IMG/VR virus record: IMGVR_UViG_3300030332_001635
Coordinates: 1-35,311 of that record
DNA: 35,311 bases
From: a virus
Taxonomy: Duplodnaviria > Caudoviricetes
Direction: 5' to 3' (one strand)
The notes beneath the pieces are model-generated. The model worked only from the letters and a program-made list of their open reading frames with translations, ran no database searches and was not told the origin of the DNA. The position numbers and the translations under genes are program-made. The first letter of the stretch is position 1. Each line of letters opens with the position of its first letter. Positions 3,240 through 12,879 of this stretch are shown here, in pieces.

Positions 3240-3938
3240 TTACGCTCTGAGTGATCCCATATCAATCTCGACATATGCTCCGCCGTGCTTGAACCCTTCT
3301 CGGATTCTATCAGCAACTCGAGCACCGTATCTAGCCTGGAAATCTTTTGCGTTTAGATTGGTGGTGATGACTGTCTTTCTGTAATTCGCATATCTCTCAT
3401 CAATTAACTCATCTAGCCGGTGGTTGAAATAACCATTCTTATCGAGATACTCGACACCAAGGTCATCAATAACAATGACCTTCTCTCGCATGATCTTCTC
3501 AAGGTGAGAATCGTATCCGCTTACCCTGCTAATCCTGGAAGATGTCCACCACCGTATACTGTTCGGGGGCGATTTAGACCTAGGCTTCGTTGACTCAGAC
3601 AGGAACATACCCGCGGCGGTACTCTTGCCACAGCCCTTAGGCCCGGCCAGGACCAGGCACCACGCCTCTCTCCCCGACGAAAGAAAAGAGATGACAGCCT
3701 CAGTCGCCTTTGTTTGCTTCATGTCTCTAAGCGTTTCTATGATGCGCTGTGGCATCCCCTGCCTTCTAAGGGAGGACTCTAGATCTTCCCCTGTCAGCTC
3801 TTTCTTTTCCTCGAGGATCTTCAGTGGGCTGGCTCTCTTCATCAGAGCTTTTATCCTGTCACTAAATTCAATCTCCGAACCCTGCGCGACTACCCCCGCA
3901 GAAATCATCACTCCCTGAAGTGTATCCATATCTTGCAT
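3240..3938 (-). CDS. DnaC/IstB-like AAA+ ATPase (helicase loader)
   Basis: Walker A GPKGCGKS, Walker B VIVIDDLGVE, sensor ITTNL and YGARVADRIRE motif. Confidence 0.9.
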   Translation of the reverse strand: MQDMDTLQGVMISAGVVAQGSEIEFSDRIKALMKRASPLKILEEKKELTGEDLESSLRRQGMPQRIIETLRDMKQTKATEAVISFLSSGREAWCLVLAGPKGCGKSTAAGMFLSESTKPRSKSPPNSIRWWTSSRISRVSGYDSHLEKIMREKVIVIDDLGVEYLDKNGYFNHRLDELIDERYANYRKTVITTNLNAKDFQARYGARVADRIREGFKHGGAYVEIDMGSLRA

Positions 3939-4317
3939 TACTGCTTTCCCCTTTTATGAAGTTATCCAAGTTCCCATCTTTCCCAAAGACATCCTTAACC
4001 GAGTGTCTCCCATTCTTCACCCACCAGTCGCTGCGAGCATTTTCAATGATAGCACGCTTTAGCTCGTCAGGTTTATACCCATCGACCAATCTTTTCTCTA
4101 TCAACTTCCAGTCAGGATGGTCGGGGTTAAGCGCTCTTCCTCTTCCTGGGTGGGTCTCTTGGTAATGGGAAACAATTGATTTCACATCTTCAAGGTGCTT
4201 CGACTTCGCCTTTGGCTTCTTGACCGGTGGATCGATCAAAGATTCTATCTCGTCTGCGGTTTTGCGCAGATATGCAGCAAGCCTTTTAATGGCCTTTGCG
4301 TTTACGTCAATTTTCAT
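3868..4317 (-). CDS. Putative replication initiator / replisome organiser (phage conserved C-terminal helical domain)
   Basis: IEKRLVDGYKPDELKRAI...WW...VFG...DNF motif. Immediately upstream of and overlapping the DnaC-like gene. ATG at 4317. Confidence 0.6.
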   Translation of the reverse strand: MKIDVNAKAIKRLAAYLRKTADEIESLIDPPVKKPKAKSKHLEDVKSIVSHYQETHPGRGRALNPDHPDWKLIEKRLVDGYKPDELKRAIIENARSDWWVKNGRHSVKDVFGKDGNLDNFIKGESSNARYGYTSGSDDFCGGSRAGFGD

Positions 4318-4337
4318 GGGATTACCTGAGGAAAGAG

Positions 4338-4407
4338 TGGGGGAGCAGACCGGTGTCAACCAAAGGAATGAAATGACACCGGAAAGTTCGCAGCTTCTGC
4401 CCCCCCA
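4338..4407 (-). ncRNA. Candidate antisense regulatory RNA (stem-bulge-stem-loop)
   Basis: 12-bp outer stem (4338-4349/4396-4407, G-U on the minus strand), 9-bp perfect inner stem (4350-4358/4374-4382), 13-nt bulge and 15-nt loop. Bulge and loop are complementary to the leader at 11457-11484. Confidence 0.7.
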
Positions 4408-4416
4408 GTTATCTAT

Positions 4417-4445
4417 ATACTACAGATCATGTGTTTAAAATGGAA
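4417..4445 (-). promoter_or_regulatory. Putative sigma70-type promoter for the hairpin RNA and replication genes
   Basis: TTCCAT-17 bp-TAGTAT on the minus strand. Predicted start ~4410, at the base of the hairpin. Confidence 0.45.
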
Positions 4446-4899
4446 TCTTTGATGAGTCGTCATCGCTGCTCATGAGAACGGACTCGAGATTAGGCTTTTG
4501 GGCAAACGGCCCCATCTCTTCAATCTCGGCTTCAGCTCGAGTGAAGTATTGCCCTACCTCCATATACTTAGAATCCTTTCGCTCTCTGAGGCGGAGCTTC
4601 CCATCTTTCCCGAGTAAGTCATCAGTGTCTAATGACTCAGTTGCATCCAGCCCGATAGAATCAATAAACCGAGCATACTTCCACTTGGCTTTCTCTGTTA
4701 GCCAGATATCATCAAAGACTTTATAGTCGTTGCTGTCATGATTAACGAGCAGGGTTATCTTGATTCCTCTCGTACCCTTGCTTGATGTTACCAGGCTGGC
4801 ATCGCCTACCTGAAACTCATAGTTTCCAGGGCCGAACTTACCTCCTGCGGATTCTTTGAAGTCCAGGTCGCTTTCTTCTACATTAAAATCAATTTCCAT
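4435..4899 (-). CDS. DUF669-like single-stranded DNA-binding protein
   Basis: PGNYEFQV...SSKG...I.ITL...VFD.IWLT..A.WK OB-fold pattern with an acidic C-terminus ending IPF. Follows the Sak4-like gene. Confidence 0.75.
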   Translation of the reverse strand: MEIDFNVEESDLDFKESAGGKFGPGNYEFQVGDASLVTSSKGTRGIKITLLVNHDSNDYKVFDDIWLTEKAKWKYARFIDSIGLDATESLDTDDLLGKDGKLRLRERKDSKYMEVGQYFTRAEAEIEEMGPFAQKPNLESVLMSSDDDSSKIPF

Positions 4900-5635
4900 T
4901 ATTTTTCTCCATTGCTTGCTGGTACTCAGACCAGTTCAGTTTTATCTTATCCGGCATTTCATATCCGGCCCTACATCCTGCGTCTCTTCCTGGACTACCC
5001 CGAAAGTGGACATAGCGGTCTTTCCCTCCCCTGGCCTTGCCATCCATGACAAGGAAGTCAGATTGAGCGTGTCCTATTTGGTCGGCCCAATCTCGTATCC
5101 GATTCCAAGAGTACTTGCTTAGATTCGGAGCCCACTTCTTGAAGTCGTCACCTAGGGCATTAGCTCCCGGCGCAAGTCCATCGTGAGCCAACAGGATGAT
5201 CCTCATCGTTCTTTTCTTTCTGATGTGATCTAATGCCATCATTAGCGTCTCCATCATCTCTCCTGCCATTACAGGGCCTTTGTGGTAGGCCATATACTTT
5301 TCCTTATTCCCATCGAATGTGGTTTTCAGGATGTGCTTTGCTGCCAATGCCTCGCACAGATCTAAGGTGTCTATAACCAGAGTCTCTCTGTCGTGGCTTT
5401 GTTGCAATACACCCCGTAGACACCCCATTAGGTCATCCCATGACTGGCAAGGGCTATCAGTAGGGATCTTTACTACCGGCAATCCGTCTGCCCCATCTTC
5501 GGTGCATACGAATATTGGCTTTGGAGCTGCTGCTCCGAATGATGACTTCCCAATCTTAGGTTGCCCATAGAGGACAAGTCTTGACGGAAGCATTTGCGGT
5601 TGAACCGGGGCAGATCCGATCATAAAGCGGTCCAT
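4889..5635 (-). CDS. AAA_24 / Sak4-like ssDNA-annealing ATPase
   Basis: LYGQPKIGKS Walker A, TEDG, TLVIDTLD Walker B, LLAH and WADQIG motifs. Confidence 0.85.
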   Translation of the reverse strand: MDRFMIGSAPVQPQMLPSRLVLYGQPKIGKSSFGAAAPKPIFVCTEDGADGLPVVKIPTDSPCQSWDDLMGCLRGVLQQSHDRETLVIDTLDLCEALAAKHILKTTFDGNKEKYMAYHKGPVMAGEMMETLMMALDHIRKKRTMRIILLAHDGLAPGANALGDDFKKWAPNLSKYSWNRIRDWADQIGHAQSDFLVMDGKARGGKDRYVHFRGSPGRDAGCRAGYEMPDKIKLNWSEYQQAMEKNNGN

Positions 5636-6581: not shown

Positions 6582-6845
6582 TTAGTGGCAAGTATGCTTT
6601 GATGCGTACTCGTCATGAGCCTCATCAAAGAGCCTGTCAGCTAGCTCCCGCATGGTTGTTGTCTTGCCGTACCTGACGCACAGTGCATCAATAATATCCA
6701 GGTTCTGTGTCACAATCACAGCTGACCGAGAGTTGGCACCGTTCACGACTTTTCCAAGCCCAGCTTTCAGCTTTGTCAATGTATCCCTCATCTGCCCAAG
6801 ACTCGTCAGATCTCGGATTTGCCCATCTAAATTTTTCAAACTCAT
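6582..6845 (-). CDS. Hypothetical protein
   Basis: 87-aa helical ORF with an AAGGA RBS in the early operon. Confidence 0.6.
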   Translation of the reverse strand: MSLKNLDGQIRDLTSLGQMRDTLTKLKAGLGKVVNGANSRSAVIVTQNLDIIDALCVRYGKTTTMRELADRLFDEAHDEYASKHTCH

Positions 6846-6863: not shown

Positions 6864-7364
6864 TTATGCAATTGCCAGCGCACGTTTGCGCTTACTTTCT
6901 TTGGGCTTGTAAGACCCGTAGTTCCCACGAATTTGCTCCATAGAGATTTCTTTCCCCGAGAACTTTCGCCGTCCAGGAGGAGCAAGATACCAAGAAACTT
7001 TCTTGTGGTGGTATCTCAGACCTGCTCCCTTGAGGGCTTCTTTGTGTTTCTTTGTTTCGCCTGTAACCCATAGCCAGGTCCCACATATCTCAAACTCTAA
7101 GCCAAGCAAGTCGCTCAATGCGAACAATGCTGTTCCTATATGAGCTGTGATGTTGGCATCTGTTCCTTGGCCCAACTCCCCACTGAAGCCCTTAAGGGCC
7201 TCGTAGGCGTTATTAATCATGGATTGCATGTGCTGGCCGTTTGGCCATAGATCGGGGTGGTATTTCAAGCTTAGCTCTCTATACCTTGCCTTTATTTCCG
7301 CGGACGTTATGCTCCCGGAGAGGCCGAGGACTTCTGCGGCCTTCTCCTTACTCATTTTTGACAT
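6864..7364 (-). CDS. J-domain (DnaJ-like) protein with C-terminal alpha/beta domain
   Basis: AAEVLGL...EIKARYRELSLKYHPD...INNAYEAL is a canonical J-domain with HPD. C-terminal EICGTWLWVTGET...WY. Confidence 0.9.
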   Translation of the reverse strand: MSKMSKEKAAEVLGLSGSITSAEIKARYRELSLKYHPDLWPNGQHMQSMINNAYEALKGFSGELGQGTDANITAHIGTALFALSDLLGLEFEICGTWLWVTGETKKHKEALKGAGLRYHHKKVSWYLAPPGRRKFSGKEISMEQIRGNYGSYKPKESKRKRALAIA

Positions 7365-10351: not shown

Positions 10352-10536
10352 AAATCCCTCGCTCGCAACGCCTTCTCATCGAAGCTTATGTCTCGACCTC
10401 GGACCCACTGAATCTCACGTTGGCAATGCACGCGATGGAGGCTTGTGCCTTGGGTTCGGAACCACTGAAGCTCACGCTGGCAACAAACACAATGGAGGCT
10501 TGTGCCACGATAACGGAACCACAGACTACTTTGGCG
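10352..10536. repeat. 57-bp tandem dual-repeat array (~3.3 units) with two alternating variable segments
   Basis: R1 ATGGAGGCTTGTGCC at 10435 and 10492 (degenerate at 10378). R2 CGGAACCACTGAAGCTCACGCTGGCAA at 10457 (variants at 10400 and 10514, partial at 10352). The period is exactly 57. Confidence 0.85.
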
Positions 10537-10734: not shown

Positions 10735-11451
10735 TTATAGGTTTTTCCATTGAATCGATGAGCTCTTGTTGCTCTTTGCAGCAAGGGCATCAATCTTTGC
10801 GTACTCTTCAGCAAGCAATGAATCGAAGTCAGGCTCCGAATTATCGCCAATGACCCGGTCAACCAATAGGTCGTCCATGCCATCGATTTTTGCCGTGTAT
10901 TCTAGGCAATCGTCATCGGAACGCTCACCTTCGAGTTCTTTCTCCAGAAGGGCAACCACTGCTTCCATGTGCTCGACCGTTATTGAATCGAAGTCCAATC
11001 TGCGCGTTTCCTTGTCACGGGTAACGCCGGGCATTTCTTCCAGCTGACCACATATCCAACCGAAGCATCTGCTCATCTCACCACGGTTGATTCCGTGACC
11101 TAATGGCGAATCCTTCCGAAGGTGGAATTCACTCCAGTGGACTTTCAACTCCTTCTTGATTGCCCACTTGTTTGCTTCATGCTTCTGATGGACCGCTTCT
11201 GCTTTGGGCGCTCCGGTCTCTCTCCACAAATAGATTTTACAATCTAAGGCTTCCATTGCCTTCAGCTTTGATTGACGAGGGTCGATATGCTTTTGCTTAT
11301 ATTGCCTGGCTCGAAGCTGAGACTTGGCAACACATAGCCTCTCGGTGACAGGCAATTGCGTTTTCTGGTATGTCTTCTTTGAGTACGACATGTTTGCCGC
11401 GTCAATATCAACTTGCTTAATTAACTCTTCAATATTAAAATCAATGTTCAT
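10735..11451 (-). CDS. First early gene, hypothetical protein (238 aa; basic N-half, acidic C-half)
   Basis: AAAGGA RBS before ATG 11451, directly downstream of a sigma70 promoter. No family recognised. Confidence 0.75.
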   Translation of the reverse strand: MNIDFNIEELIKQVDIDAANMSYSKKTYQKTQLPVTERLCVAKSQLRARQYKQKHIDPRQSKLKAMEALDCKIYLWRETGAPKAEAVHQKHEANKWAIKKELKVHWSEFHLRKDSPLGHGINRGEMSRCFGWICGQLEEMPGVTRDKETRRLDFDSITVEHMEAVVALLEKELEGERSDDDCLEYTAKIDGMDDLLVDRVIGDNSEPDFDSLLAEEYAKIDALAAKSNKSSSIQWKNL

Positions 11452-11495
11452 CTTTTTTCCTTTGGTTTTGGGAGTCTGCGAACTCCATTTCATCT

Positions 11496-11525: not shown

Positions 11526-12409
11526 GCTTTATCTTTAAAAACCTTAACTATTCTAACCACTTACCCTTGAATAGCTGCCTTCGACCGCTTCGGTCGTCTT
11601 GTGGCGGAGCCTTGGCCGACACGATAGCGGAGCGGTGGCTGTCTTCATGGGCCGAGCTTCGAGGGTCATTCTCTTTGATCTCGTGTTCACGCTTTTGCTC
11701 TCTTTTTGTTAAAAAGCACACGAAAATCATCTCTTTTGCAGTTAAAGGCGACTGTGTTTTGTGTGGATAGAAGATAGGAAAGCTCAATGATTACAAGGTA
11801 TCGCTCTTTTTCTCTTGTTTTATGGGAGTGTTTTACTGGGGATGTGAGGGCTCCGAAGCACGCTAAATAGCTTATATCATTGAGTATATTTCTACCCTTA
11901 TTCTCACTATGAGATTTCTCTCTTCTCTCCCTGTCTTCGTTTCTCCCTCTCTTCTCTCTACGGCGGACACTCCTTAAACATTCTATGTATTCTCTAATTA
12001 AGAGACGCTATCCTTGTACCCCCCCCTACCCCTCTTCAATTTAATCTTCTGCTAGCGGAACACCCTCCATGAATTTTTTTACGATTTCAACATCAACGCA
12101 GCGCATTAAAGTATATATCCTTAGGTCTTAATTAGTAAGAGACATAGATATAAACACCCCCCCCAGACTACATAGTTAGTAACCGCAGATTAGGGAAGCT
12201 GGTATATTCGCTTCATCCGTACTGTATTGTGTTGAATATCTGGTTAGTGGATATCACCATTGCCACAATGCTTATGTGGTGTGTCCCAGTTACTAGCTAT
12301 GCTTCGTTGGGTCATAAGGAGGCAATGGTTCTGTGTCCGCTTAAAGGGGGGTTAATTGCTAACCCCTAGCGTCTACTCCGTAACCGTCTACCTTTAACTT
12401 AGGGCATAG
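11526..12409. other. Large non-coding divergent control region (probable genome end / packaging-start area)
   Basis: No convincing ORF. Contains a pyrimidine tract (11914-11959), C-runs and hairpins. Lies between the divergent early and late arms, just upstream of the terminase genes. Confidence 0.5.
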
Positions 12410-12444: not shown

Positions 12445-12879
12445 ATGGAAGAAGCAAAGAAGAAAGAGAAAGTAACGTCTGGAACAAGTTCTACGCCCAC
12501 GACTCGTGCAGGTAGGGCGTCTAAGTTTGGTCGTTCTACTGTGACTAAGCATGGTGTGGTTAAGAAGGCTCGTTCTGCTGGTTCTTATGGTATTGATGGT
12601 AAGAAGGTGCGGGTTGTTCAGAGTAAGGACAAGCATGCTTTATGGGATGATCTCTTTTCCATAACGGAGAGTCAGATCAAAGCCCTTAAGACGAAGGTGG
12701 AGGATGGGGAAGATCTAGACACCAAGGATATGAGTAAGCTTGATAGCTGTTATGGTGGAATGAAGAAACTGCTAGAGATTGAGGTGGTGCTTAAGTCTGA
12801 TGCTATCTCCTCTCTTTCTACTGATGAACTGAAACGTTTAGCCAAGAAGGCTATCCGGGAAGCGAAAGAAAATGATTAG
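12445..12879 (+). CDS. Putative terminase small subunit
   Basis: First late gene. Basic disordered N-terminus, helical core and C-terminal LSTDELKRLA motif. The call is mainly positional. Confidence 0.5.
   Translation: MEEAKKKEKVTSGTSSTPTTRAGRASKFGRSTVTKHGVVKKARSAGSYGIDGKKVRVVQSKDKHALWDDLFSITESQIKALKTKVEDGEDLDTKDMSKLDSCYGGMKKLLEIEVVLKSDAISSLSTDELKRLAKKAIREAKEND

Follow-up and report, generated by a model that had tools for sequence, protein, structure and literature searches.

The window analysed here is the whole 35,311-nucleotide IMG/VR virus record IMGVR_UViG_3300030332_001635 (Duplodnaviria; Caudoviricetes), a 35-kb virus with a completeness estimate of 93%. Late genes for terminase, portal and major head protein run rightward from position 12445. 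The early and replication genes run leftward from 11451 in the order orphan first gene, small ORFs, exonuclease, Sak4, single-strand DNA binding protein (ssb), O-like initiator, DnaC-like loader and RusA. Metagenome runs with DNA of the window are marine or derive from hydrothermal vents, and no RNA run was listed among them. No close cultured phage was found, and the top matches of Sak4 and terminase in the phage collection stay below 30% identity. The features relevant for the following all lie on the minus strand:

3240..3938, minus strand: DnaC-like helicase loader (phrog_50, E 8e-21; Pfam IstB_IS21)
3868..4317, minus strand: O-like replication initiator (phrog_18020, E 3.5e-4), starting 20 nt past the RNA stem
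4338..4407, minus strand: structured RNA with outer stem, 13-nt bulge, inner stem and apical loop (folding z -6.1; matched by model R2)
4358..4368, minus strand: apical-loop segment complementary to the ribosome-binding (RBS) region of gene 10735-11451 (the window's longest exact complement; 9-nt core hybrid -11.4 kcal/mol, opening cost 2.2)
4383..4387, minus strand: ACUUU, 3' end of the bulge, from which the pairing could continue into the target hairpin's 5' arm (common to the L007 group; duplex and opening energies)
4388..4393, minus strand: bulge seed CUGCGA, the 6 nt immediately 5' of the conserved ACUUU and predicted specificity element, complementary to the target hairpin loop 11476-11481
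4414..4419, minus strand: weak -10-like hexamer (4/6), absent from the promoter scan list; relatives have better boxes at equal spacing
4435..4899, minus strand: ssb, the RNA's upstream neighbour (phrog_378, E 3.9e-6)
10735..11451, minus strand: first early gene, 238 aa, mostly helical, of a small family with 14 representatives in a 50%-identity library
11457..11467, minus strand: ribosome-binding region of the target, separated by 5 nt from the start codon, predicted single-stranded
11471..11486, minus strand: hairpin of the early leader as predicted target, with a stem of 5-6 bp and the loop UCGCAG, folding with high probability

Many small early proteins of the window could not be assigned to a family by Pfam or PHROG. 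The 238-aa product of the first early gene likewise had no Pfam or PHROG family; neither PDB nor BFVD yielded a match for it at E<=0.001, and Foldseek and Atlas gave nothing. Further early genes encode a DnaJ-domain protein (6864-7364, minus strand; Pfam E 2.7e-10) and, directly upstream of the exonuclease, a small all-helical protein (6582-6845, minus strand) that is kept across the clade and gave no family or fold match. A ribbon-helix-helix repressor was rejected for the latter, its model being all helical and without a PDB match. The starts of ssb (4874-4907) and of the first early gene (11426-11459) have a 34-nt stretch of 82% identity in common, which spans the RBS region and the first codons. 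Two 57-nt direct repeats (72%) occupy positions 10378-10491 within the GC-rich gap that follows the first early gene, and repetitive GC-rich gaps of like kind are also present in relatives.

The divergent control region harbors a second conserved non-coding element at 12150-12400 (minus strand), which also occurs in L007 (2095-2310), L053, L054 and L063. In five aligned phages 22 of its 43 predicted pairs change on both sides, several motifs are invariant, and a promoter-like pair with 17-bp spacing lies 10-16 nt upstream of the first motif in seven of the nine loci having that motif. The element has no match in Rfam. It may be an RNA of about 150-250 nt that has not yet been described, or else serve in packaging or as an origin.

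An earlier note, made from the letters of the sequence alone, had proposed that the minus-strand RNA at 4338-4407 folds into a 12-bp outer stem, a 13-nt bulge, a 9-bp inner stem and a 15-nt loop, and had not recognised it as a known family. The fold (outer stem 4396-4407/4338-4349, bulge 4383-4395, inner stem 4374-4382/4350-4358) was recovered with a minimum free energy of -39.6 kcal/mol, which none of 200 shuffles equalled, and z amounts to -5.1 if the flanks are included. The length of the apical region was as proposed, but not its full openness, since a weak 3-bp helix closes the loop; about 2.2 kcal/mol would be required to open its 9-nt core, and the 11-nt apical site extends with its final base into the inner stem. 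The bulge seed is fully accessible. Rfam contained nothing relevant even at permissive thresholds, in agreement with the note.

Viral, metagenome and genome collections were scanned for further versions of the RNA, whereby near-identical copies were counted once and the version of the window was included. Sixteen distinct versions were obtained, with 52-70% identity to the window's RNA and folding z values of -4.0 to -8.0 throughout. All of them lie directly after ssb, and the initiator comes next in each of the 15 contigs that reach that far (L030 stops earlier). Stem covariation, for which the earlier note had proposed a test among relatives, was observed in a sequence-only alignment of seven versions: both partners are changed in 8 of 23 pairs, the paired cells amount to 95% as compared with 44-53% in slid controls, and the covariation score was reached by none of 500 shuffles, a control which ignores relatedness. 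Within this alignment the bulge is identical in six of seven versions and the inner stem varies freely. A model built from 12 relatives with the window left out (R2) matched the window at this element only (E 0.006, filters off) and missed it in the filtered genome search; with a model of seven sequences (R1) the window was not found at E<=1. Positions 4338-4407 represent a conserved structured RNA that heads the replication operon.

Most versions, including that of the window, consist of two helices and a bulge or internal loop between them. The 13 bulge-type versions have at least six different bulge sequences among them; one seed is common to six versions, and in the L034 version one seed letter is changed. 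In the branched versions L008 (3093-3187), L030 (1826-1909) and L029 (3932-4009) one or two small hairpins replace the bulge, which brings them nearer to C4 and CI with their cloverleaf outline. In more distant phages the place upstream of the initiator is taken by long hairpins of other kinds (L068, L070/L094/L097, L077, L082/L089) or by a short one (L096/L098). In L093 (complete genome G004) no RNA was found ahead of the initiator; its first leader nonetheless has a small hairpin, as judged by eye. Eight phages (L066, L078, L081, L085, L090, L100, L075, L084) encode a RusA of 71-73% identity and lack the clade's other replication genes, and weak 46-nt matches of a model in four of these are probably unrelated hairpins. 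L048 (genome contigs) and L046 (metagenome) were discarded as relatives, as they have no gene in common with the clade.

The position of the RNA upstream of the O-like initiator and the DnaC-like loader agrees with the earlier suggestion that it doubles as leader of the replication genes. The candidate promoter which had been assigned to it was found only in part: a -10-like box is present but weak (best 4/6), and the promoter scan lists none. Among the 16 versions, 14 have a -10-like hexamer with at least 4/6 matches that sets the purine run which opens the stem at nt 5-8, by a lenient four-offset test. The RNA is likely to form the 5' end of the replication-operon transcript. No rho-independent terminator was found after the RNA stem, and a small free RNA would therefore require processing; the scan also listed no terminator-like sites on the minus strand at the RNA or its target. 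A stem-N-CCA end is present in nine of the 16 versions, the window's version being without CCA. These tRNA-like ends hint at processing, and the intact mRNA could act equally.

According to the earlier note, the bulge (9 nt) and the apical loop (11 nt, on the RBS) are complementary to two sites 8 nt apart, which lie 7 kb from the RNA in the first early gene's leader, and this leader should be the best partner in the genome. Both matches are present as described. No exact complement to 4330-4415 on the two strands of the window is longer than the 11-nt pairing of 4358-4368 with 11457-11467, and the 9-nt match (4385-4393 with 11476-11484) lies next to it at the given distance. The target of the bulge is partly paired, as six of its bases form the entire loop of the leader hairpin and the remainder belongs to the 5' arm. 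For the six bulge bases 5' of ACUUU, pairing with all six bases of this loop would cost little in opening energy, and ACUUU could then invade the 5' arm. By opening-energy calculation all pairing sites are accessible. A third match of 8 nt (4368-4375 with 11486-11493) was rejected as a main site because its opening costs exceed the hybrid energy.

With a summed duplex energy of bulge and loop of -33.5, the 11451 leader ranked first of 14,038 60-nt windows (runner-up -31.0, mean -15.7, sd 3.5), which confirms it as best partner, and its helix score of 9+11 was reached by none of 629 ORF-upstream regions from the clade. The seed CUGCGA has 17 sites in the window, and the combination of a hairpin loop with a downstream loop complement occurs at a single one of them (11471-11486). 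In L001 the leader shows no differences in 60 positions, as compared with 11 in 150 coding positions. For a metagenome contig across the leader 11 of 12 changes are listed, and all 11 fall into the coding part.

Both the RNA and the first early leader are present in three genomes: the window, the complete genome G001 (L007) and G002 (L017). They were compared by a rule which calls for the genome's own seed in a hairpin loop and a loop complement at most 14 nt downstream, and which was framed on the window after the L007 leader was known. In the window it yields one site, the 11451 leader. The seed of G001 occupies the same register and reads UGUUCC, all six letters being unlike those of the window, and in the whole G001 genome the rule yields exactly two sites, which are the leaders of the first two early genes. 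One of these genes is the ortholog of the window's target (34% identical). G001 has an extra 76-aa gene ahead of this ortholog; the leader sites are L007 3026-3043 and 3343-3360. As the two leaders have unlike stems and the same hairpin loop, one RNA would hit two genes. The seed of each genome gives no rule sites in the other two. Only 25 of 4,096 hexamers pass the rule anywhere in G001, and given the way the rule was framed, these roughly 0.6% are not a blind p-value. The predicted seed and its putative target loop differ jointly between the window and G001.

The apical loop of L007 changes along with the RBS. By energy, the L007 leaders reach only the 3.1st and 6.9th percentile, and in helix length 19 and 70 of 628 ORF-upstream regions do equally well. 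G002 has a different first gene and a U-run bulge which faces a leader rich in A. While the hairpin-loop rule is failed in this genome, the energy test is passed: the first-gene leader scores -25.0 against a best value of -25.1 in the genome, which places it 16th among 12,765 overlapping windows. The window is thereby the only one of the three genomes that passes both the hairpin rule and the energy test. The co-change of bulge and leader which the earlier note had asked for in relatives is accordingly seen in L007, where complementarity is kept, is mixed in L017 and is missing in L098, the shorter hairpin of which has no leader match.

Another match was detected between the branched L008 RNA and the leader of L054, the first gene of which is a 44%-identical ortholog of the window's target. 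Three loops match by 6+7+8 nt, exceeding all 629 ORF-upstream regions, and the leader is first of 5,800 windows with a margin of 1 nt. The link between L054 and L008 rests only on the GC content (0.50), a tetranucleotide r of 0.77 (L077: 0.75), a shared sample series and the elimination of L012, the ortholog of which is a different gene copy. In sum, the window stands as a strong case, G001 as a reciprocal one on structural grounds, G002 as one on energetic grounds and L008 with L054 as an indirect one, against which L098 and L093 are distant negatives. For the L053 leader no partner RNA was found. The distant hairpins L068, L082, L097 and L098 were rejected as two-site partners, having no two-site leader match; the L097 loop matches one early RBS. 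In L009 the apical loop (RNA 4940-5019) is unlike that of close kin and has, by eye, a 9-nt complement at about 1015-1033, the RBS of a middle early gene. The apical loop is largely a generic anti-RBS, and judging from such complementarities apical loops may reach several early RBSs.

The joint change of bulge and leader hairpin in two related phages makes it likely that the RNA switches the first early gene off, and we consider it probable that it does so in trans, as a two-point antisense repressor. From the earlier note's proposal of trans antisense control, the structured RNA, its placement as leader of the replication genes and the two-site complementarity, allele-specific between window and G001, have held; a role in immunity is not supported. 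In the proposed mechanism transcription would be initiated from a promoter just upstream, so that the RNA starts at the stem-opening G run, and the acting form would be either a trimmed small RNA or the 5' domain of the intact replication mRNA. The hairpin loop in the leader would receive the bulge, whereby a kiss of 6 bp confers specificity, and the apical loop would cover the RBS, block loading of the 30S subunit and stop translation. The purpose would be timing, with the earliest gene or genes turned off once the replication genes come on; exclusion of relatives with the same seed may be a side effect.

An explanation in cis, which we regard as rather unlikely, is that the RNA is a 5' UTR element of the initiator gene (a stabiliser, a processing site or a switch on its own RBS) and that the distant matches result from a generic anti-RBS loop and chance. 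The RNA lies 20 nt ahead of the initiator start without a terminator, distant relatives have unlike hairpins at the same place, and the loop pairs best with the RBS of its own initiator in L009 and L044 (rank 1 of 15), this RBS being among the top five in nine of 15 versions. However, it ranks only 15 of 15 in the window and 13 of 15 in L007, and pairing with the initiator RBS in cis was rejected as inconsistent across versions. Nor does a cis element account for matches between seed and hairpin loop 6-7 kb away in two genomes whose seeds differ in six letters.

We give little credence to a C4-like immunity or superinfection-exclusion factor acting in a carrier or lysogenic state, with the seeds as immunity groups. 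The diversity of bulge sequences resembles the variable a' loop of C4, and the stem-N-CCA end also fits, but one seed is common to six versions, and the promoter of the RNA would drive the initiator too, unless transcripts are cut or stopped. Moreover, tyrosine integrase, resolvase, ParA and HTH_3 gave no match in any of five records, two of them rated 100% complete, although the control profiles of this search were positive in 12-14 of 14 genomes. As these lysogeny genes were not found, lysogenic immunity, which the earlier note had put forward, is unsupported, and a timer for early-gene shut-off is more likely.

CsrA/RsmA-like proteins recognise GGA in a loop. That the leader hairpins are such protein-binding sites or stabilise the 5' end, with the RNA or the strand opposite to it serving as a protein decoy or DNA origin element, appears very improbable: ACGGAAC occurs in the leader loops of L007 and L054, a leader hairpin is present also in L093, which is without the RNA, and the plus strand folds as well (-36.0 kcal/mol), but the loop of the window has no GGA and yet matches its own seed, and pairing by way of G-U and A-U alternatives is preserved on the minus strand of the locus, which favours an RNA on that strand over a DNA cruciform.

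Antisense RNAs of phages that act in trans on two short sites set apart from each other are known mainly from the lysogenic immunity of P1/P7 and P4. In C4, as described in PMC5320573, one loop occludes the RBS and another confers specificity, the a' loop being variable, and the RNA is defined by three stem-loops, P1-P3. Like C4 of P1/P7 (RF01695), the trans-acting repressor proposed here has about 70-80 nt and two unpaired segments, one on the RBS and one just upstream for specificity (PMC5320573, PMC12197685). On the evidence of sequence and covariation, an RBS segment and an upstream specificity segment of this type are present in the window and G001, L017 being mixed. Unlike the three stem-loops of C4, the RNA has two stacked helices with a bulge; its target is an orphan first early gene instead of an antirepressor mRNA, and it is encoded in a replication leader 7 kb from this target in phages in which lysogeny genes were not found. 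RNase P releases C4 from a precursor by cleavage at the 5' end of its closing stem. For the RNA described here the predicted transcription start already coincides with the stem, and N-CCA is present in part of the versions and not in the window. RF01695 gave no matches in the window at E<=1, none in 12 loci at E<=5 and none in five loci at E<=1. Motifs of c4 are listed in a table of PMC2864571.

Like P4 CI (PMC4825925), the RNA derives from the leader of a transcript with replication genes and is predicted to pair with two sites; it lies directly upstream of the O-like initiator and DnaC-like loader in 15 of the 16 versions. According to the same paper, seqA and seqC flank CI within its own transcript and cause premature termination, whereas the targets here are located in another transcript and overlap an RBS. 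A seed complement with a loop site was not found in the RNA's own leader, the sole qualifying site of the window being the one 7 kb away. The resemblance to P4 CI and P1 C4 claimed by the earlier note extends to the two-site and RBS logic (C4) and to the placement in a replication leader (CI), but not to membership in either. By analogy, a C4-like action is likely for an RNA that is a member of neither the C4 nor the CI family.

IsrK of the Salmonella prophage Gifsy-1 is similar in that one phage RNA is at once a small RNA and the 5' portion of an mRNA (PMC4825925). It differs in that it activates translation and acts on its own longer transcript, and the RNA of the window has no Rfam match. 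The sar RNA of P22 is transcribed opposite its target, with long complementarity. As described in PMC12197685, this small RNA keeps translation of a phage gene from being initiated, as is proposed for the RNA of the window. Unlike the RNA described here, which would pair with two short distant sites, sar represses an antirepressor. In a survey presented in PMC10690425, which reports 8,495 candidates, IMG/VR was mined for structured RNAs. The RNA was not found in three of its six supplements, the alignment and coordinate files lying outside this search, and it could already be an anonymous candidate there. A literature search returned no paper on this RNA.

As a tentative wider reading, which we consider possible at best, a non-temperate phage family would time its infection by RNA alone: through its 5' domain, the replication mRNA would silence the first early genes via a loop-bulge kiss and RBS pairing, a swappable six-letter seed would create mutually excluding types, and the logic of C4 would have evolved independently and be used without lysogeny. 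The window and L007 provide natural allele pairs, which make the mechanism testable by swapping, without need for a cultured host. If the RNA works in this way, it would also offer a compact, programmable repressor scaffold. The RNA family is absent from Rfam and occurs in marine phages without detected lysogeny genes, where, if the reading as an antisense repressor is true, it ties the onset of replication to the shut-off of the earliest gene.
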